NCBI GenBank assembly: GCA_964527425.1
Contig: CAZGOA010000001.1
Location: forward strand, 98,435-162,434
Direction: 5' to 3'
Length of the DNA: 64,000 bases
Origin: an uncultured Gammaproteobacteria bacterium
Lineage (GTDB): Bacteria > Patescibacteriota > Microgenomatia > UBA10105 > UBA927
The notes below the pieces were generated by a model. That model was not told the origin of the DNA and did not search any database. It saw only the letters and a list, made by a program, of their open reading frames with translations. The translations under genes were made by a program, and so were the position numbers. This document shows, piece after piece, positions 4,905 through 55,276 of this stretch (the stretch's first letter is position 1; each line of letters begins with the position of its first letter).

Positions 4905-6540
4905 AAATGTATATTAATACTACCACGAAGACGAAGCTGATCAAATTACCTATTGTTCGAATTGGAGTGTTGGTAAATTTTGCTTCCAAGGTGCTAAAAT
5001 CCCTTGGGATAGTAATCACTGGTTTACCACCATTAAGTATAATAGGCTGCTCTTTTCCATTTACAATATAAATCCATCCCGGAAAATGAACCATCTGCAA
5101 CGTAATTTGTGTTTCGTTCTGGGCCCTAAATTCATACTTCTTAAACGTTTCCTTTTCTGTTATTTGTTTATGAGTAAATATTGGGTTCTCAATAATCGTT
5201 GTGTTTGCAATATCCTCAACTCTCGTTGGCTTCATAAAATCAGGCGGTAAATACTCATCTGATATTTTTGAAACTCTAAATTTTAATTCTTCTTGAGTTT
5301 CAAATTCCGAAACATTTCTATCATATATATATTGTGGACGAGCTAATTCATTACCTTTCCAGTAGATTAACGCTAAAACAATCACTAACAACAACAGTTT
5401 AATTAGTTTCTTTTCAGACAGCATCACTATTCCACCTGCAATAAACGCCATTGGTATCATCATTAATGTCAAAAACCTCCAAGGATACTGAAGATATTCA
5501 AACCTCGGTATTATTTCCCATACAGGTAGTGATATTGAAGTCATTAGGAATAATGAAATAATCCAAATTCCTCCAGCAATAAAAAGAAACTGCTTATGTT
5601 GTGAGAGAGTTGCTTTACTAAATAATATAACTCCCCCTAGTAAGCTTATAATGATAAATGCTTTTCCTAAAGCAAATGATAAACCATCTTGACAGCCTAA
5701 TTGAGAACCTCCAAATCCCCATTGTGAATACCATAATTGAGATAAACATACAAAATGATCACGAAAATCTGCAGTACTACTTACTTGCCCACTTACTGAT
5801 GTATAGTGCATTTCAAATAATGCAGGCATCCAAAAAAATGAAGATATTCCTAAACCAATAACGATGCCCCATAAAATCGTAAAACTAAAATGTGTTAGTT
5901 TAGATGATTTATAGATAGAGAAAAGAAAAACACCTAGCAAATACAACAACAGAATGATTAACGTTACATATCCAAGTAAGGTATGAGACAAAATCGTACC
6001 TGCTAAACCTACGCCTATGAGCAATCTGCTTAACCAATTTTTATGCTTAAAGGATTCATATATTCCTAAACATATTAATGGTAAAAAAATACTAGCCCAA
6101 TATTCTCCTATTGCCCCTCTTACGTATAATTGCACAGAATGATAGGGCATATATACATAAAACACACCTGATATTAATCCACCCATTTTCCCAAATATTC
6201 GAGATGCACACCAATACATGATATATGCTGCAGATAGTATTCCAATTCCAATCATAATTTTAGTAGCAATAAGTCCTGAAAATCCGAAGGAATAAAGAAG
6301 TCCACCAACATAATAAGGAAGAGGACCATAAAAATTAAATAAAGGGTAACCGTATCCATAACCTAAATCACTTACCCAACGCACAGGAAATTGTCCGTTT
6401 CTTAACGCTTTCCCCATAGCAACTACCCTTCCTACCTGTGTATCATCGTGCATAGGAAAAAATCCTGGTGTTGTTAGTATTCTAATTTGCGTCATTATTG
6501 TGAAACAAATAAGAATAAACGCAATAATATGTGTCTTCAT
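4882..6540 (-). CDS. Polytopic membrane protein, GT-C-like glycosyltransferase candidate (paralog A)
   Basis: 552 aa with more than 10 TM helices. The first extracytoplasmic loop carries acidic residues (FFPMHDDTQVGRV) and the motif GQFPVRWVSDLGYGYGYPLFNFYGPLPYYVGGL, which is shared with the next gene. A C-terminal soluble domain follows. Confidence 0.45.
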   Translation of the reverse strand: MKTHIIAFILICFTIMTQIRILTTPGFFPMHDDTQVGRVVAMGKALRNGQFPVRWVSDLGYGYGYPLFNFYGPLPYYVGGLLYSFGFSGLIATKIMIGIGILSAAYIMYWCASRIFGKMGGLISGVFYVYMPYHSVQLYVRGAIGEYWASIFLPLICLGIYESFKHKNWLSRLLIGVGLAGTILSHTLLGYVTLIILLLYLLGVFLFSIYKSSKLTHFSFTILWGIVIGLGISSFFWMPALFEMHYTSVSGQVSSTADFRDHFVCLSQLWYSQWGFGGSQLGCQDGLSFALGKAFIIISLLGGVILFSKATLSQHKQFLFIAGGIWIISLFLMTSISLPVWEIIPRFEYLQYPWRFLTLMMIPMAFIAGGIVMLSEKKLIKLLLLVIVLALIYWKGNELARPQYIYDRNVSEFETQEELKFRVSKISDEYLPPDFMKPTRVEDIANTTIIENPIFTHKQITEKETFKKYEFRAQNETQITLQMVHFPGWIYIVNGKEQPIILNGGKPVITIPRDFSTLEAKFTNTPIRTIGNLISFVFVVVLIYIYGKKTIS

Positions 6541-8150
6541 GCTCTTCTATTTTTAAATACTTTTCTTACTTTTTTTGTACGCTCATGAGGAGATTCATGC
6601 ATTAACATAACTACTTCTTTACGAATCTTCATTTTAATAGACAATGGGATTAGCATTGCTGAAACATATAATAATCCACTAACTATCGATATCATCGTTG
6701 CAATAAAGCGTGGAACTGTTTCTCTAAACTCTGTAATAAGTCTAAATTGTCCTTTAGGAACCGGAAACATAACAACGCCTTTAGGATTATCATAAGTAAT
6801 TGTTACTGGTACTCCGTTTAAAAATACACCCCATCCAGGATAATAAATACTATTGATCTGAATCACACTATCTTCAATTGTTTCGATATTTGCTATCACT
6901 TTATTCGTCGTTATTACAGCATCTTTTATCACTCCTTTACCACTAAAAAACTCGATTTCTGACGACGCTCTTTGACTAGGAAATTCCCTTACCCATCTAG
7001 GCATATATTCATTCGCAACCGTAGTTGATGCTTCATTCGTAGTATAAAATGTTTCTGGCTGATTTGTTCTTTTGATATTTCTATATGTATTAACAAGTGA
7101 TGGTATGAGTAAGACAATACATACAACAATAAATAATTGTTTAAACGGTTTTTGAAGTTTATCAATAGTAATAGCCGTTAGTAATGACCCAATTAGTATA
7201 AGAAGACTTAAGAATCTATATGGGAACTGAAAAAGTCTAGTAAAAGAATCAACTGACCATAGAACTGAAGTAACAGGTAAACTAAGAAATAGTAAAAAGA
7301 CAAAAGAGACAATTAAAAAACGGTATGTAATAGTTTCTTTTTTCCAGTTGAACAATAACACAATAGCCGCTATTACATGTGAGATAGTTATGAGTATCCA
7401 CTGTGAATTTATAGAAAAATACTGAAATGGATCAGAAACGCTAATGGTATCAAAACGAACATATCTTCGCTCAATTAATGCTGGAATCCAGAAAAAACTT
7501 GTTATACCTAGTGCAAGTATTGTTGATATAAAAACGTGAATTCTTCCTCGTACTAATCCATATAAAAAAATAAAAGGCATTGATATTATTGCTACAGAGT
7601 TATGACTTAGAATTAATATAGAAAGAGCCAGAGTAAATAAATGTTGTTTTCGACTTTCTATTGCATACAAAGACATAGATGCCATTGCGATTGCAAGCAC
7701 CTCACCTACAGATCCTCTGCGAAATAAATCAAAACCTAAATAGGGTGATAATAAAAAAGTCAACACACCTACTAAACTTGCAACACTTGTCGTAAATCGT
7801 TTTAACCACAAAAACAAAGCAATACTTGCTATAAGGACAGATCCGATCAAGATTATTTTTATTGTTTCAATAAAAGGAATCCCCAGCACATGAATAAATG
7901 AACCAATGTATAAAAATCCTGGATACAAAAAATTCGCTACAGGATATCCGTAACTATAATTTAACCTTCCTAATAACCGTACTGGAAACTGACCTTCTCT
8001 AAAACTCTGATAAAATGCAGATAGACGTATAATCATCCAATCACCATCATCTGTTTCGATGAAACCTGAACGGAAAAAAGGCCATACTAGTAAGAGACTA
8101 AAACATACTATTAATAATATATATAAAACCAGTTGTTTGGATAACTTCAT
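6537..8150 (-). CDS. Polytopic membrane protein, GT-C-like glycosyltransferase candidate (paralog B)
   Basis: 537 aa. Same architecture and motif as the previous gene: ETDDGDWMIIRL...GQFPVRLLGRLNYSYGYPVANFLYPGFLY. Overlaps the paralog by 4 bp. Confidence 0.45.
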   Translation of the reverse strand: MKLSKQLVLYILLIVCFSLLLVWPFFRSGFIETDDGDWMIIRLSAFYQSFREGQFPVRLLGRLNYSYGYPVANFLYPGFLYIGSFIHVLGIPFIETIKIILIGSVLIASIALFLWLKRFTTSVASLVGVLTFLLSPYLGFDLFRRGSVGEVLAIAMASMSLYAIESRKQHLFTLALSILILSHNSVAIISMPFIFLYGLVRGRIHVFISTILALGITSFFWIPALIERRYVRFDTISVSDPFQYFSINSQWILITISHVIAAIVLLFNWKKETITYRFLIVSFVFLLFLSLPVTSVLWSVDSFTRLFQFPYRFLSLLILIGSLLTAITIDKLQKPFKQLFIVVCIVLLIPSLVNTYRNIKRTNQPETFYTTNEASTTVANEYMPRWVREFPSQRASSEIEFFSGKGVIKDAVITTNKVIANIETIEDSVIQINSIYYPGWGVFLNGVPVTITYDNPKGVVMFPVPKGQFRLITEFRETVPRFIATMISIVSGLLYVSAMLIPLSIKMKIRKEVVMLMHESPHERTKKVRKVFKNRRA

Positions 8151-50913: not shown

Positions 50914-51966
50914 CTATGACATCAGTTTCAAGTATGCCAAGATGAAATCTTCAATATTGCCATCTAGGACGCGATCTGAGTTACTTGTTTCATGCTCCGT
51001 CCGCGTATCTTTTACTAAATGATAAGGATGAAGTACGTATGAACGAATCTGGTTTCCCCATCCTGGAGTTTTATACTCACCCCGCATGTGTTTTTCTTGT
51101 TTTAATCGTTCTTGTTCTGCAATTTCCCATAATTTTGCTCTCAGCAGCTTTAATGCAGATTCTCTGTTTTGTCCTTGCTGTCTTTCTGCCTGGCTCGTTA
51201 CAACTAAGCCACTTGGTTTATGTCTAAGACGCACGGCTGTAGACACTTTGTTGACGTTTTGTCCGCCTTTTCCACCACTTCTATAGAACTCCCATTCTAA
51301 TTCATCTTCTTTAATACTAACGCCTGCATTATCATCAACTACCGGTAACACTTCCACCATAGAAAATGATGTCTGCCGTAAATTATCTGCATTAAATGGA
51401 GATTGTCTTACTAATCTATGAACCCCCGCTTCTGCTTTTAAAAATCCATAGGCATATTCTCCAGTGACTGTAATTGTGACACTTTTAATGCCTGCCTCTT
51501 CACCTGGTGTGTAATCTATTTCTTCTTGTGTCCATCCTTTTTGCTCGATGTATCTAGAATACATTCTAAATAACATAGAAGTCCAATCCATCGCTTCTGT
51601 CCCACCTTGTCCAGCATGAAGGGCTAATATTGCATCTCCACTATCGTATGGTCCAGATAAATACAAGGCAAATTCCATTCTCTCTAACTCTTTTATTACC
51701 TCGTCTTCATTTCCTTCTTCTATCATAAGTTGCAGCATTTCAGCTTCTTCTATTTGTTTTTGAAGATTTGCAATTCTTTTCATTACTTTTGCAGCCTGTT
51801 CATGTGCTTGCCAGAACTCTGGTTTACTACTTTCAATTTCTAAATCTTGAACCGTACGACGCTTTCCTTCTGGATCAAGCTTATGTAATACTGCAAGAGC
51901 TCTTGTTTTAATTTCCTCAGTCATGGGATAATTGTAGCATAGGATCAATCTTTCTGACTGACCCAT
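50914..51966 (-). CDS. prfB: Peptide chain release factor 2
   Basis: SPF tripeptide (RQSPFNADN), which is RF2-specific. GGQ motif (SGGKGGQNVNK). LHAGQGGTEAMDW. The reading frame is continuous, so there is no programmed +1 frameshift. The likely true start is MTEEIKT at ~51924. Confidence 0.85.
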   Translation of the reverse strand: MGQSERLILCYNYPMTEEIKTRALAVLHKLDPEGKRRTVQDLEIESSKPEFWQAHEQAAKVMKRIANLQKQIEEAEMLQLMIEEGNEDEVIKELERMEFALYLSGPYDSGDAILALHAGQGGTEAMDWTSMLFRMYSRYIEQKGWTQEEIDYTPGEEAGIKSVTITVTGEYAYGFLKAEAGVHRLVRQSPFNADNLRQTSFSMVEVLPVVDDNAGVSIKEDELEWEFYRSGGKGGQNVNKVSTAVRLRHKPSGLVVTSQAERQQGQNRESALKLLRAKLWEIAEQERLKQEKHMRGEYKTPGWGNQIRSYVLHPYHLVKDTRTEHETSNSDRVLDGNIEDFILAYLKLMS

Positions 51967-52016
51967 TTACGCAGATATTCATTTAGGAATACTATGATAG
52001 AAGAAGACCCATATTT

Positions 52017-53228
52017 ATGTTGTATTTATCAGAACTGCTCGGTAAAAAAGTCCGTGTGTTGGATAGTAAACTTGTTGGTACATTAACCGACCTTATTTTT
52101 GTATCTTCTGAAGTCCCCTATATCACCAAAATCCAAGTAAAATTCTCAAAAAAAGGTACAGCTCTCTATCCGATTAGTGCCTGGAAACGAATAAATGGAA
52201 CAATAGAAATAGAAAAAACTGAAGATGTTCCTTTGGGAGAAAACGAAGTATTTATGGGGATGAATTTGCTTGATCAACAAATTATTGATATTAAAGGTAA
52301 TAACATCGTTCGAGTCAATGATGTACTTATTCAGGAAAAGCCGACATTTGTTATTTCTGGAATTGATATTGGATGGACTGGAATATTACGATGGTTTGGG
52401 CTTGAAGATAGGCTATCGAGCATCATAAAAAAACCCCTCCCTCACAAGCTTCTCCCCTGGGCAGAAATCCAACCACTTGAACTAGCCAGAGGAAAAGTTG
52501 TTCTTAACAGAGAAGAGAATAAATTAAAATCAATCGCACCAGAAGATCTTGCAGATTACCTTGAAAAAACAACTATTCATAATGCTATTAAAATACTTTC
52601 ATTGGTTAACCAAGAAACAGCAACTGAAGTTATTCAAAATTTGAATATTAACTATCAGACACAAATTTTTCGACAAATGACACCTGAATCTGCTGCACAA
52701 ATTGTAACCTATGCAGATCCTGATGAGGCGACAGATCTGTTACTGACTGCATCTGAGGAAAAAAGAGAACATATACTTACATTATTAAATCCTGAAAAAA
52801 AGAAAGAATTAACATTTTTATTATCTCATGCAGAAAGTGCCATCGGTGAGTTAATGACGACAGAATTTTTAACATTTACACCAGAAGATACAGTTAGGAC
52901 GGTAGTAGACCGGATTAGAAAAGAATCAAGTGGGTACGAAAGCTTTCCATATGGTTATGTGATTAATAAAAAAAATGAATTAATCGGTGTTTTTAGTCTG
53001 CACGAACTATTACTTCAGCCAGAAAATTCTCAGCTTATGAAATTTATGAATCAAAATGTCACTATTATTCATTTAACGACTCCTAAGATACTGGCCATCA
53101 AACGTATGCTTAAATATAAATTACGAGCTGTTCCTGTTATTGACCAACATCGACAAATATTAGGGATAGTAACATTCGATGATGTTATCGAACCGTTACT
53201 AGAACGTTTAACTGAACAAACAGTATGA
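52017..53228 (+). CDS. Cytosolic PRC-barrel + MgtE-N + tandem CBS domain protein (MgtE-like Mg2+ sensor module with no membrane domain)
   Basis: 403 aa. The N-terminal LGKKVRVLDSKLVGTLTDLIF resembles a PRC barrel. The helical MgtE_N region is PEDLADYLEKTTIHNAIKIL...ESAAQIV...DEATDLL. A CBS pair is present (LMTTEFLTFTPEDTVRTVVDRIR...VPVIDQHRQILGIVTFDDV). There are no TM helices. Confidence 0.7.
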   Translation: MLYLSELLGKKVRVLDSKLVGTLTDLIFVSSEVPYITKIQVKFSKKGTALYPISAWKRINGTIEIEKTEDVPLGENEVFMGMNLLDQQIIDIKGNNIVRVNDVLIQEKPTFVISGIDIGWTGILRWFGLEDRLSSIIKKPLPHKLLPWAEIQPLELARGKVVLNREENKLKSIAPEDLADYLEKTTIHNAIKILSLVNQETATEVIQNLNINYQTQIFRQMTPESAAQIVTYADPDEATDLLLTASEEKREHILTLLNPEKKKELTFLLSHAESAIGELMTTEFLTFTPEDTVRTVVDRIRKESSGYESFPYGYVINKKNELIGVFSLHELLLQPENSQLMKFMNQNVTIIHLTTPKILAIKRMLKYKLRAVPVIDQHRQILGIVTFDDVIEPLLERLTEQTV

Positions 53229-54484
53229 AACTTAGAACAATAAAACACTCATTCCAAAAAATGAAACTGAATATCATGCTCATGCTTGCTGTACTAGGGC
53301 CTGGGTTAATTACTGCATTTGCAGATAATGATGCGGGTGGTGTGGCAACCTATACCTCTGCTGCTGCAAAATTTGGATACTATTCACTAATTACGCTTAT
53401 TCCAATCACTATTGTTTTGGCTGTTACACAAGAAATTGGTGCCAGAATTGCTATTGTAACGGGTAAAGGTTTAGCAGATTTAATTAGAGAACGTTTTGGA
53501 GTAAAAACTGCAGTATTTGTTTTCATGACGCTTTTCGTAGTTAATTTTGGCGTCATCTTACAAAATATCGGAGGTTTGAGATCTGGACTGGAATTATTTT
53601 CTATTGATTACCGGATATTTCTACCGATAGTTATTCTTTTTCTTTTTTTCATTATTACGAAATCGAATTATAAAAAGTTACAACAATTCTTTTTTGTACT
53701 TATTTTCTTTTATTTAGCATATTTAGTATCGGCTATTCTTGCAAAACCAAATTGGGTACAAGCAACTCGTGCATTAGTAATTCCTGAAAAAATGCCGTCA
53801 TTTGATTTTCTATTCACTTCTATTGCTGTTCTTGGCACGACAGTAACGGCTTGGGGACAGTTTTTTATTAATAGTTATATTAAAGATAAAAAATTAAAGG
53901 TTGATGACTTACGTTTTTCAAGAATTGAAATTATTTCTGGTGCGATTTTTACCAACTTATTTTCCTTTTTTATGATGGTTGCAGTAGCTGCAACAATTTT
54001 TACCTACAATATTCCCATTAACACTGCATCTGATGCAGCTCGTGCTATGGAACCATTGGCAGGAACTTTTGCGTCTTCTTTGTTTGGATTTGGATTATTG
54101 GTGGCAGGATTTTTAGGATGTGCCATTGTTCCTTTGGCAACAGCGTATGCTTTTTCTGAATTTTTTGGATATCAAGGAACATTAAATGATGACTTTAAGA
54201 AAAGCAGATTATTTTATAGTTTTTTTATCATTCAAATAGTATTGGGTGTACTTATTACATTTATCCCATCAATCTCACTTTTTAATATTACCTTGATTGC
54301 AGATTTTATAAACGGAATGATGCTCCCAATAATTTTTTATTACTTATACAAAATTGCAAACAATGAAGAACTCATGGGTCACTATAAAAACTCTACTTTA
54401 CAGAATATTCTTTTAGTCAGTTCTGGCTTTATTATCAGTATTGGTACCGCTCTGGGAGGATTCGGGAAGCTGTTCGGATTGTGA
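53225..54484 (+). CDS. NRAMP/SLC11-family transporter with non-canonical metal-binding residues (NRMT-like)
   Basis: 419 aa. LAVLGPGLITAFADNDAGGVATYTSAAAKFGYYSLI aligns with the MntH segment [23 protein letters not shown]...FGYQLLW, but DPGN is replaced by DNDAGG. TM6 reads GAIFTN where MntH has GATIMPH, so the Met and His are lost. It overlaps the upstream MgtE-like gene by 4 bp. Confidence 0.7.
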   Translation: MKLRTIKHSFQKMKLNIMLMLAVLGPGLITAFADNDAGGVATYTSAAAKFGYYSLITLIPITIVLAVTQEIGARIAIVTGKGLADLIRERFGVKTAVFVFMTLFVVNFGVILQNIGGLRSGLELFSIDYRIFLPIVILFLFFIITKSNYKKLQQFFFVLIFFYLAYLVSAILAKPNWVQATRALVIPEKMPSFDFLFTSIAVLGTTVTAWGQFFINSYIKDKKLKVDDLRFSRIEIISGAIFTNLFSFFMMVAVAATIFTYNIPINTASDAARAMEPLAGTFASSLFGFGLLVAGFLGCAIVPLATAYAFSEFFGYQGTLNDDFKKSRLFYSFFIIQIVLGVLITFIPSISLFNITLIADFINGMMLPIIFYYLYKIANNEELMGHYKNSTLQNILLVSSGFIISIGTALGGFGKLFGL

Positions 54485-54850
54485 CTTTGAGTTTGTAGAG
54501 AGTGATTGACTTAATGCTTCGAGTATTTTCTGTTGTTGTTCTTCAGGTAGTGAACCAAATTTTGAAATAATAAGTCGTGCAGCATGAGTAACGACAATAT
54601 CTGTTGCATAGTTTTTTATCATTTGAATTCCACTGTCTTTTACATTCTGAGGAGACAACGCCATCACAGACTGTTCATTTGATACTCCTAATACATTTGC
54701 TGCTTGTTGTCCAAATGCGGTAGAACGAACAAATGTATTAACCCCTTCAAGCACCTGCGGTCTTGGTGCAGTAGAAAACCGTGACCACGATAGCGATACC
54801 CCAACTATTGCCAACACTACAACGAAAAACACTAAGAAAAAACGAATCAT
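54413..54850 (-). CDS. Hypothetical N-terminally anchored/secreted protein
   Basis: 145 aa. An N-terminal hydrophobic helix and a Gln/Ser-rich tail. It overlaps the 3' end of the convergent NRAMP-like gene by 72 nt, so its true extent is uncertain. Confidence 0.25.
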   Translation of the reverse strand: MIRFFLVFFVVVLAIVGVSLSWSRFSTAPRPQVLEGVNTFVRSTAFGQQAANVLGVSNEQSVMALSPQNVKDSGIQMIKNYATDIVVTHAARLIISKFGSLPEEQQQKILEALSQSLSTNSKSQSEQLPESSQSGTNTDNKARTD

Positions 54851-54862
54851 ACCACTACAATA

Positions 54863-55276
54863 TTACCCTCTATTTTTTCGAATGAATAGTATTATTCCAC
54901 TTATTAAGGTTATTACAATATATGCAAAAATAATTGATAAAATTGACAACACTGTCCACCAAACCTCAAATGTATTAAATGACACCTGTTGTAAAGCATT
55001 TAATAAATGCACAGATAGAAATGATGGAAGTCCCAAAGAAATTAAAAGTAACTGCTCATACGGTTTAAGTAAACTTGCCCATACTAACGGAGAAATGCAT
55101 GCATCACGGGATGGATAAAAACAGAGCATATACAGCAAACTTGAGAGCAATAAACTGCTCACTATTCCCCAAATCATTGCTAATACAGGACGAAGCAACA
55201 CAGTCTTTGGTGCAATATGCTGTTTATGCGCATTAGTTGTCTTTTTTGTATACCTAACTGTTTTGGATTTTTTCAT
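54863..55276 (-). CDS. Hypothetical membrane protein
   Basis: 137 aa. A basic N-terminus followed by 3-4 TM helices. Confidence 0.3.
   Translation of the reverse strand: MKKSKTVRYTKKTTNAHKQHIAPKTVLLRPVLAMIWGIVSSLLLSSLLYMLCFYPSRDACISPLVWASLLKPYEQLLLISLGLPSFLSVHLLNALQQVSFNTFEVWWTVLSILSIIFAYIVITLISGIILFIRKNRG

Follow-up and report, generated by a model that had tools for sequence, protein, structure and literature searches.

The system closest to the locus presented here is that of Shin et al. (2014, PLoS Genet 10:e1004429), who were the first to report that most nrmT genes adjoin a gene for the cytoplasmic domain of MgtE and speculated about “cytoplasmic feedback regulation of transport”. Mg2+ transport was shown for Ca_c0685 and Ca_c3329 of C. 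acetobutylicum, and the Clostridium NrmTs do not need the partner for it. One pair was tested, ACP2976/ACP2977 of A. capsulatum; co-expression of ACP2976 with ACP2977 gave no further improvement of the rescue, and the transporter seemed to prefer Mn2+. We found no later literature on the function of the partner.

EleNRMT from Eggerthella lenta is a proton-independent Mg2+/Mn2+ transporter which was purified as a monomer (Ramanadane 2022, eLife 11:e74589). The NRMT signature DxxG in TM1 and TxxA/T in TM6 replaces DxxN and AxxM. Thr224 is needed for recognition of Mg2+, and Gln379 is conserved and functionally important, so that its mutation strongly compromises transport. The study deals with the transporter alone; a search of its text for operon, genomic context and CBS gave no adjacent MgtE-like gene, and where MgtE is mentioned it is the channel.

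With its two genes the locus analyzed here belongs to the mgtE-fragment/nrmT operons of Shin et al. (2014), a type which is widely conserved and not new. An earlier note on this DNA knew of no description of the combination; the 2014 report is one, and as the arrangement was published then, the gene pair by itself adds little. As in the operons of Ca_c0685, Ca_c3329 and ACP2976/ACP2977, the NRMT gene is found immediately 3' of a gene for a soluble MgtE cytoplasmic domain. The present locus differs from the systems of the 2014 study in coming from Patescibacteria and in having a single gene for the partner, which is divided over two in C. acetobutylicum. The N-terminal PRC-barrel module of the partner is not mentioned in that paper (“PRC” and “barrel” occur 0 times). 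What can be added to the 2014 description from sequence comparison is the retention of the Mg4, Mg6 and Mg7 ligands, the loss of the ATP-stacking Phe, an architecture common to PRC-MgtE channels, the lack of convincing fusions and, in this Microgenomates subclade, an Asp at the Gln379 position.

The locus and its soluble gene product

The window, i.e. the whole stretch of DNA which was analyzed, is 64,000 nucleotides long. Its source genome is a Microgenomates-like member of the Patescibacteria. The features of the locus are the following:

52017..53228, + strand: ORF1, soluble NRMT-associated partner, 403 aa (PRC barrel, second beta domain, MgtE_N, CBS pair)
52017..52232, + strand: PRC-barrel domain, ORF1 residues 1-72 (Pfam PRC, AF2, Foldseek)
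52239..52496, + strand: beta-rich domain without annotation, ORF1 residues ~75-160 (conservation, motif)
52524..52835, + strand: MgtE_N helical domain, ORF1 residues ~170-273 (Pfam, alignment to 2yvy)
52845..53225, + strand: CBS pair, ORF1 residues ~277-403 (two Pfam CBS matches, residue mapping)
53225..53228, + strand: ATGA, overlap of ORF1 stop and ORF2 start (direct reading of the sequence)
53225..54484, + strand: ORF2, NRMT-type permease, 419 aa (Pfam Nramp, match to EleNRMT)

Both genes lie where the earlier note had placed them, with the overlap of 4 bp it had given; the overlap reads ATGA and may couple the translation of ORF2 to that of ORF1. The divergent prfB which the note had placed upstream is also there, as an RF2 gene whose product has the domains PCRF and RF-1. 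An MgtE membrane domain immediately upstream, which the note had considered as an argument against its own reading, was looked for, and none was called within ~5 kb on either side of the gene pair. A consensus scan for promoters and terminators from 51700 to 54900 gave sites that were fewer or no more numerous than in shuffled sequence.

The ORF1 product is soluble and follows the cytosolic regulatory part of MgtE in its fold and in the order of its domains; a PRC barrel and another conserved beta domain precede this part. The MgtE_N model of Pfam matches residues 175-273 (66.9 bits) and is followed by two CBS matches reaching residue 393. Among PDB sequences ORF1 matches MgtE cytosolic domains (2oux, 8gps and 2yvy, E 1e-23 to 1e-25), and Foldseek aligns its AF2 model with structures of these domains (E~1e-18, TMt~0.7). 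No membrane segment was found in ORF1, where the maximum Kyte-Doolittle value over 19 residues is 1.18. TIGR00400 (mgtE) scores under its cutoff, the match being limited to positions 24-257 of a profile of 450. The earlier description of the gene product as a free-standing MgtE-type cytosolic module is borne out by these data, and ORF1 is not an MgtE transporter since it has neither PF01769, which is the C-terminal membrane domain of five helices in MgtE, nor a hydrophobic segment and there is no ORF for an MgtE TM domain nearby. The start codon is supported by the invariance of M1 and Y3 in 41 homologs.

The PRC barrel was assigned from a Pfam match to residues 2-70, which scores 25 bits in the whole protein, just over the cutoff, and 20.4 bits when the domain is taken alone. 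It is modelled with a pLDDT of 78-92, and Foldseek finds PRC-barrel proteins (CdpB1/B2 8qzo/8onw, the reaction-centre H subunit, MTH1859 and RimM) at TMt~0.7 with weak E-values of 7e-3 to 0.1. The following domain, residues ~75-160, is better conserved than any other part of the protein and carries the motif LLDQQIIDIKGNxIVRVNDV...GxDIGxxGILRWFG. In an alignment of 71 partners, columns at least 90% identical make up 14 of its 86 positions; the CBS pair has 6 such columns in 124. It has no Pfam match, and the AF2 confidence is moderate to low. A second PRC barrel at this place was considered and rejected, as it has no support from Pfam and hhalign against the first PRC domain gave a Prob of 2.7%.

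The metal and nucleotide sites were mapped onto ORF1 through the alignment to 2yvy and the list of Mg sites in PMC5882242. E59, D91 and D95 of TtMgtE correspond to E204, D236 and D240 in the MgtE_N domain, and D247 (Mg4) corresponds to D389 in the CBS pair. By this mapping the acidic ligands of Mg4 (D236/D389), Mg6 (D240) and Mg7 (E204) are retained, as in the MgtE cytosolic domain of Thermus thermophilus (2YVY/2YVX) and its relatives (2OUX; 8GPS/8GPV), to which ORF1 corresponds in sequence and fold over the N domain and the CBS pair. Among the 71 partners D240 is Asp in 67, D236 is Asp or Glu in 57 and E204 is acidic in 55. Unlike MgtE, ORF1 is detached from a membrane domain and has ~165 extra N-terminal residues in the form of the PRC barrel and the second beta domain. 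The Mg5 ligand D226 is replaced by K368, and Mg2 and Mg3, the sites of the plug helices, have no conserved counterpart because ORF1 ends there. The ATP-stacking F227 has become L369 and is Leu, Ile or Val in all 71 partners, while the position of MgtE N203 is variable; MgtE-type regulation by ATP is therefore probably not retained. The net charge of the MgtE part of ORF1 is -10.

The permease and its predicted binding site

On the evidence of its alignments ORF2 is an NRMT, a branch of the Nramp/SLC11 Pfam family that stands as a sister or outgroup of SLC11 within PF01566; the members of the branch which have been characterised, NrmT of C. acetobutylicum and EleNRMT, import Mg2+ (and Mn2+) and are not coupled to protons. 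The Pfam Nramp model, which has 357 positions, is matched from 1 to 356 with 253 bits, and ORF2 has about 10-11 hydrophobic segments. EleNRMT (7qia) is matched over residues 12-409 with E=1.2e-84 and 288 bits; the best canonical Nramp/MntH reaches 73 bits (E=2.9e-19), and the NCBIfam models fall far under their cutoffs (MntH 99 vs 430, nramp 53 vs 272). The earlier note had called gene 2 SLC11/NRAMP-like and had set it beside the NRMTs; both are borne out, its place being in the NRMT branch and not among the Mn/Fe Nramps.

By alignment the predicted binding site consists of D36, G39, T205, T208, W210 and D360. The position of the canonical DPGN in TM1 reads D36-A-G-G39, and the replacement of this motif stands as it had been proposed. 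The HMMER alignments to DraNramp and EleNRMT give G204-T-T-V-T-A-W210 for TM6, with Ala replaced by T205, Met by T208, Pro by A209 and His by W210. The earlier note had read FTN at the Met/His position; this was a misreading, as FTN (residues ~250-252) falls in TM7. The canonical residues are nevertheless absent, and the loss of the soft Met ligand which the note had inferred holds, but through T208 and not through the residues it had cited. With D36, G39, T205 and T208 the protein has the published DxxG-TxxA/T signature of NRMTs. Assignment as a canonical Nramp/MntH transporter of Mn2+/Fe2+ was rejected on the same positions, DAGG and TTVTAW standing instead of DPGN and AxxMPH. Among 80 relatives of ORF2 all keep the D, the G and the T, and Thr is found at the Met position in 78.

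The homology to EleNRMT (7QIA/7QIC) is full-length, D36, G39 and T205 corresponding to D55, G58 and T224. In both proteins a small or polar residue stands for the Met, and a Trp occupies the TM6b His position; W210 aligns with W229 of EleNRMT and with the His of DraNramp, the sole position of the proton pathway which was checked in detail. ORF2 differs from EleNRMT in having T208 for A227, which is within the A/T signature, A209 for P228, N114 for E133 and D360 for Q379. At this last position, the Gln of alpha10, 33 of the 80 relatives have Q, 32 have D and 10 have N. Judged from these sequences the Asp is a variation of a subclade and gives no ground to exclude ORF2 from the NRMTs; since the Microgenomates subclade has it at a position so important in EleNRMT, substrate and kinetics may differ from those of EleNRMT.

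Conservation of the pair, probable origin of the partner and riboswitches

The persistence of the pair in relatives, on which the earlier note had made its reading depend, is found at about 74 of 80 NRMT loci, where a partner of ~395-460 aa matching both halves of ORF1 lies directly upstream on the same strand. With start codons chosen heuristically, the two genes overlap or are separated by at most 20 nt at 63 of 76 loci, and the identical ATGA overlap is present at 18 of these 76. Order, orientation and tight spacing are conserved across Patescibacteria, Chloroflexota, Acidobacteriota and Bacillota, while the flanking genes vary from locus to locus. A few NRMTs (L057, L068) have no adjacent partner, and at L062 the partner is downstream.

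Proteins of ~600 aa in which PRC, the second beta domain, MgtE_N and the CBS pair are found in the same order, followed by the MgtE-TM domain, match ORF1 residues 1-400 at 28-30% identity (P0318, P0351, P0372 and P0387); they have the motif LLDxQIxD...RVND, and ORF1 differs from them in lacking the membrane domain PF01769. No literature on these full-length PRC-MgtE channels was found. The architecture of ORF1 most likely derives from such a channel through loss of the membrane domain. A function of the PRC module as a docking adaptor specific for NRMT is made less plausible by the finding that full-length MgtE channels carry the same N-terminal module. A search of 1.84 billion representatives with the concatenated ORF1 and ORF2 as query gave no convincing partner-NRMT fusion of ~820 aa. 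Two candidates were rejected: P0346 is a 343-aa fragment explicable by an indel of 1 nt, and the locus of P0296 looks frameshifted.

Upstream of ORF1 there is no M-box: Rfam gave no match at E<=1 between 50500 and 55500, and none at gathering in the 64,000-nt window. The aptamer, which takes 169 nt, would not fit into the ~50 nt between the genes. In Bacillota, M-box riboswitches scoring 151-164 bits precede the partner-NRMT operon at L073, L078 and L084, and at L068 one precedes a lone NRMT; among the loci scanned they were found in Bacillota only. The A. capsulatum pair also has no M-box (Shin 2014). The element is present in many members of the partner-NRMT group and is not a defining feature of it.

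Possible functions of the partner

We hypothesize, with slightly better than even confidence, that the locus is an operon of the Shin type in which ORF2 is a Mg2+ importer and ORF1, descending from a PRC-MgtE ancestor, is a Mg2+ sensor which gives feedback control. The two-polypeptide Mg2+-gated transporter of the earlier note is the same proposal as that of 2014 and is a reasonable hypothesis. In the model ORF2 would import Mg2+, and the ATGA overlap would tie the synthesis of ORF1 to that of ORF2. ORF1 would bind cytosolic Mg2+ at the interface of the N domain and the CBS pair, at the equivalents of Mg4, Mg6 and Mg7, and the compact Mg2+-bound form would associate with the cytosolic face of the transporter and slow or block the uptake. 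The result would be a post-translational feedback on an otherwise uncoupled uniporter. Being proton-uncoupled importers of Mg2+, NRMTs should need some brake, and in a lineage without an M-box riboswitch control at the protein level could be the main regulation.

Some observations speak against gating. The only published experiment, that with ACP2976 and ACP2977, gave no sign that the partner regulates or helps; the sensor of MgtE acts via covalently attached plug helices and Mg2/Mg3, which ORF1 does not conserve; and no convincing fusion was found among the representatives searched. The geometry of gating in MgtE is not simply transferable either, because MgtE is a dimer and EleNRMT a purified monomer.

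A more detailed version of the feedback model, which we consider less likely than not, postulates that a detachable PRC-MgtE_N-CBS sensor of Mg2+, taken from PRC-type MgtE channels, gates a LeuT-fold NRMT uniporter non-covalently, that residues ~75-160 form the surface for docking and that the Asp of alpha10 in this subclade tunes the handling of Mg2+. KtrA/TrkA RCK subunits are soluble ligand sensors encoded beside the transporter KtrB/TrkH. The NRMT pair would resemble them in having a separate cytosolic sensor adjacent to the membrane subunit and in the proposed gating, although folds and ligands are unrelated. If the model is true, a LeuT-fold carrier would be controlled in trans by a soluble Mg2+ sensor, a type of regulation of which the superfamily has so far given no demonstrated example, and one sensor module would serve two unrelated membrane folds. 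That Patescibacteria with their small genomes keep the pair without a riboswitch suggests that control by the protein is of importance in its own right; for biochemical work these compact systems would be a reasonable choice.

The pair might instead handle another divalent metal such as Mn2+, the selectivity of ORF2 being altered and ORF1 sensing that metal. EleNRMT also transports Mn2+, the window locus has no M-box, and the subclade has D for Q379, A for P228 and N for E133 of EleNRMT. We consider this unlikely: the full NRMT signature D..G/T..T is present, including T205 which corresponds to T224 of EleNRMT, the soft Met ligand favouring transition metals is absent, the extra carboxylate of D360 is a hard ligand and no argument against Mg2+, and relatives in Bacillota are under Mg2+ riboswitches. 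Rather improbable, in our judgement, is a partner that does not gate and serves as a cytosolic Mg2+ chaperone or buffer to which the transporter passes the ion, or assists in the assembly or stability of the transporter. “Metal chaperone activity” was offered as an alternative by Shin et al. (2014), and in their heterologous hosts the partner is dispensable for transport. The net charge of the MgtE part and the missing plug-helix gating sites would agree with such a function. Free Mg2+ is, however, already millimolar, and we know of no described Mg2+ chaperone; a retention that is specific for the interdomain sensor sites Mg4, Mg6 and Mg7, and not one of general acidity, better fits a conformational switch.

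ORF1 could also be independent of ORF2, a Mg2+-responsive regulator acting elsewhere whose adjacency reflects co-regulation only. That the same cytosolic architecture works with another membrane domain in PRC-MgtE channels, that full-length NRMT fusions were not found, and that a few NRMTs have the partner downstream or not adjacent at all would be expected from this hypothesis. It is nevertheless very improbable in view of the same-strand adjacency, often with overlapping codons, which is seen at most of the loci in distant phyla; because this tight adjacency persists across phyla while the flanks differ, ORF1 and ORF2 resemble subunits of one system. The last hypothesis, that ORF1 is a functionless mgtE remnant decaying after loss of the membrane domain, could appeal to the lack of a TM domain and to the name “magnesium transporter” in some databases. 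It is contradicted by the conservation data and effectively refuted at the sequence level: the 815 homologs found at E<=1e-10 are full-length proteins of ~400 aa with the same Pfam architecture, invariant residues are spread over the entire ORF1, and the gene is kept beside NRMT in several phyla.

A practical point concerns annotation. The name “magnesium transporter” is frequent for ORF1 homologs in the databases and misfits these proteins, which have no membrane domain.

The gene pair and its permease

The locus holds ORF1, coding for a soluble protein resembling the cytosolic part of MgtE, and ORF2, coding for an Nramp-fold permease. The features referred to are:

50914-51966, minus strand: RF2 gene (prfB), the divergent neighbour upstream of ORF1
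52017-53228, plus strand: ORF1, 403 aa
52239-52496, plus strand: unannotated beta-rich domain of ORF1 (residues ~75-160), motif LLDQQIIDIKGNxIVRVNDV...GxDIGxxGILRWFG
53225-53228, plus strand: ATGA, shared by the stop (TGA) of ORF1 and the start (ATG) of ORF2
53225-54484, plus strand: ORF2, 419 aa

The junction reads ACAGTATGAAACTT, so the stop of ORF1 and the start of ORF2 have four bases in common; the ORF listing and this junction bear out the two-gene coordinates and the 4-bp overlap of the earlier note. Pfam finds in ORF1 the families PRC (residues 2-70; 25 bits, marginally over the cutoff of 21.2), MgtE_N (175-273) and two CBS domains, and no hydrophobic segment is present, in agreement with the proposed PRC, MgtE_N and CBS protein lacking a membrane domain. 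ORF2 matches Pfam Nramp over its full length (253 bits) and has ~10-11 hydrophobic segments. The divergent prfB is upstream as described, and no gene with an MgtE membrane domain was called within ~5 kb around the pair.

The closest solved structure to ORF2 is that of EleNRMT, the Eggerthella lenta NRAMP-related Mg2+ transporter (7QIA, E=1.2e-84, residues 12-409); canonical Nramps match at ~1e-19 or worse, and the NCBIfam MntH/Nramp models score far under their cutoffs. Alignments to DraNramp and EleNRMT place D36-A-G-G39 in TM1 and G204-T-T-V-T-A-W210 in TM6, where the Ala/Met/Pro/His positions of Nramps are T205/T208/A209/W210. The FTN earlier taken for the TM6 Met/His lies in TM7. NRMTs are defined by a DxxG-TxxA/T site replacing DxxN-AxxM (Ramanadane et al., 2022), and the ORF2 site reads DxxG-TxxT. 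In 80 related loci from species-representative genomes (39-71% identity; Patescibacteria, Chloroflexota, Acidobacteriota and Bacillota) the D, the G and the first T never vary, and Thr is found at the Met position in 78. Judged from this site and its conservation ORF2 is an NRMT, and the earlier assignment to that branch stands.

Three more residues set the subclade of ORF2 (for the most part Microgenomates-type Patescibacteria) apart from EleNRMT: A209 for P228, N114 for E133 and D360 (codon 54302-54304) for Q379. The last is of note because mutation of Q379 strongly compromises transport by EleNRMT (Ramanadane et al., 2022); of the 80 loci, 33 have Gln here, 32 Asp and 10 Asn. Asp or Asn occupies the site in the Microgenomates-type subclade (loci L005-L050), which also has Ala at the place of Pro228; the other subclade has Gln and Pro, as in EleNRMT.

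Domains, MgtE-type metal-site residues and probable origin of ORF1

The top matches of ORF1 among solved structures are exclusively MgtE cytosolic domains (2OUX, 8GPS, 8GPV, 2YVY; E 1e-23 to 1e-25). In an AF2 model made from 41 homologs (mean pLDDT 75.7), residues 1-66 and 77-153 form two beta domains; a disordered linker joins these to a helical domain (164-272), and the CBS pair follows. The model resembles MgtE cytosolic domains with Foldseek E~1e-18 and TM~0.7. The first beta domain is a PRC barrel: it matches CdpB1/B2, the reaction-centre H subunit, MTH1859 and RimM with TM~0.7, at E values of only 7e-3 to 0.1, and its Pfam match is weak. Pfam gives no match to the second beta domain, and no similarity between it and the first was detected. 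This second domain is the most conserved region of ORF1 over 71 partners, with at least 90% identity in 14/86 columns vs 6/124 in the CBS pair.

The Mg2+ sites of Thermus thermophilus MgtE (TtMgtE; PMC5882242) were carried onto ORF1 via alignment and then onto the 71 partners.

Table. TtMgtE Mg2+ sites, their ORF1 equivalents and state in the partner family
Mg4 (D91/D247): D236/D389; conserved
Mg6 (D95): D240; Asp in 67/71
Mg7 (E59): E204; acidic in 55/71
Mg5 (D226): K368; Lys replaces Asp
Mg2/Mg3 (plug helix): no equivalent; not conserved, ORF1 stopping at this point

In MgtE, ATP stacks on Phe227 (PMC5529423), in place of which every one of the 71 partners has Leu, Ile or Val. These residues suggest that the MgtE-type interdomain Mg2+ switch is plausibly kept in ORF1, and that the ATP modulation probably is not.

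Proteins of ~600 aa (P0318, P0351, P0372 and P0387, from the fusion search described below) carry a PRC barrel and second beta domain before MgtE_N, followed by CBS and the MgtE membrane domain, and match ORF1 residues 1-400 including the motif of the second beta domain. They look like an uncharacterised MgtE subfamily, likely ancestral to the NRMT partner. By sequence the architecture of ORF1 is that of the cytosolic half of such a PRC-type channel, and loss of the membrane domain would be the simplest history. Since the full-length channels have the same N-terminal PRC/beta module, this is not NRMT-specific. It should be noted that public names of the membrane-less ~400-aa homologs of ORF1 ('magnesium transporter', 'Mg/Co/Ni transporter MgtE') claim more than the sequence supports.

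Pairing, precedent and possible action of ORF1

In ~74 of the 80 NRMT loci an ORF of ~395-460 aa lies directly upstream on the same strand and matches ORF1 both in its first 165 residues and in its MgtE part. Among the exceptions, L013 is a contig end, no partner was found in L057 and L068, several partners are cut off where their contigs stop, and L062 and L029 have the variant arrangements given below. With start codons assigned heuristically, partner and NRMT overlap or are spaced by at most 20 nt in 63 of 76 pairs, 18 of which have ATGA; the flanking genes vary from locus to locus. The objection entertained in the earlier note, that the two genes might not be co-conserved in relatives, fails in view of this pairing, the tight spacing and the differing flanks. 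In L062 the partner (5349-6608) is downstream of the NRMT. In L029 it is split into two ORFs, 51-854 (PRC and part of MgtE_N) and 858-1325 (CBS), which recalls the split partner of C. acetobutylicum (Shin et al., 2014).

The combination, of which the earlier note knew no description, was in fact published by Shin et al. (2014; PMC4072509). They showed Mg2+ transport for Ca_c0685 and Ca_c3329 of C. acetobutylicum, where the adjoining MgtE-like gene is split in two, and found that most NrmT genes adjoin a homolog of the MgtE N-terminal cytoplasmic domain. As speculative roles of the partner they named 'cytoplasmic feedback regulation' and, alternatively, 'metal chaperone activity'; the central idea of the earlier note agrees with this speculation. 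A PRC-barrel module is not mentioned. Ramanadane et al. (2022) studied the transporter alone; all their mentions of MgtE refer to the channel, and no text on operon, genomic context or CBS was found there. Our search found no later literature on the partner. The locus is genuine and well conserved and of an operon type already described, here from a candidate-phylum lineage. What is added here to the knowledge of mgtE-fragment/nrmT operons is modest. It comprises the likely derivation of the partner from PRC-type channels, the surviving and lost Mg2+/ATP site residues, a beta domain that is conserved though unannotated, Asp in place of the alpha10 Gln, and the finding of no fusions.

The two genes, an MgtE-type cytosolic protein and an NRMT, are conserved together and tightly coupled genetically. 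ORF2 would import Mg2+, and ORF1, made alongside it, would sense cytosolic Mg2+ through the kept sites at the N/CBS interface; Mg2+-bound ORF1 would then restrain ORF2, giving post-translational feedback on a carrier without proton coupling. Against such restraint counts that the sole published co-expression test, with the A. capsulatum pair, gave no further rescue (PMC4072509), that the plug-helix coupling elements are absent from ORF1, and that oligomeric states differ (MgtE dimer vs EleNRMT monomer). The lack of fusions counts in the same direction: ORF1 and ORF2 concatenated were searched against 1.84 billion representative proteins, and none of the best 150 matches (down to 173 bits) is an ~820-aa fusion, all being separate partners or NRMTs. 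A fusion of at least ~30% identity over both halves would rank well over 173 bits and should have shown. Two junction-spanning proteins are unconvincing as fusions, P0346, a fragment of 343 aa, and P0296, whose locus looks frameshifted.

One rival is a different metal specificity of the pair; the A. capsulatum transporter seemed Mn2+-preferring (PMC4072509). The NRMT family is tied to Mg2+ by M-box riboswitches (RF00380, 151-164 bits) at four Bacillota loci, upstream of the partner-NRMT operon in L073 (2298-2463), L078 (159-323) and L084 (2323-2494), and directly upstream of an NRMT without adjacent partner in L068 (3577-3743). Around ORF1 and ORF2 the Rfam search gave no match, and an M-box cannot fit upstream of ORF1, since the intergenic space is ~50 nt and the aptamer 169 nt. 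ORF1 may alternatively be a chaperone, a buffer or an assembly factor, or function independently of ORF2; the kept Mg2+ sites count against the former and the tight pairing against the latter. That ORF1 is a pseudogene remnant is excluded by its conservation.

Surroundings of the locus

Rfam at gathering score gave no tRNA, rRNA or riboswitch over the whole 64 kb. Many TPA_asm MAGs (L006-L082) are labelled 'uncultured Gammaproteobacteria bacterium', and their NRMT and partner are 55-67% identical to those of Microgenomates; the naming of the organism in these records seems untrustworthy.

All ORFs of at least 200 aa over 291-51966 are on the minus strand, and at the divergent point between prfB and ORF1 both the orientation and the sign of the GC skew flip (~-0.2 to ~+0.05), which may be linked to replication or may only reflect the coding strand. 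A 145-aa ORF (54413-54850, minus strand) runs toward ORF2 and shares 72 bases with the 3' end of that gene; it has no Pfam match, the adjoining ORF at 54863-55276 likewise has no family match, and both are called as genes in public assemblies. In many bacteria the RF2 gene contains a programmed +1 frameshift. Here it has the SPF motif and the PCRF and RF-1 domains, and is a single unbroken ORF across the frameshift region (...AVLHKLDPEGK...).
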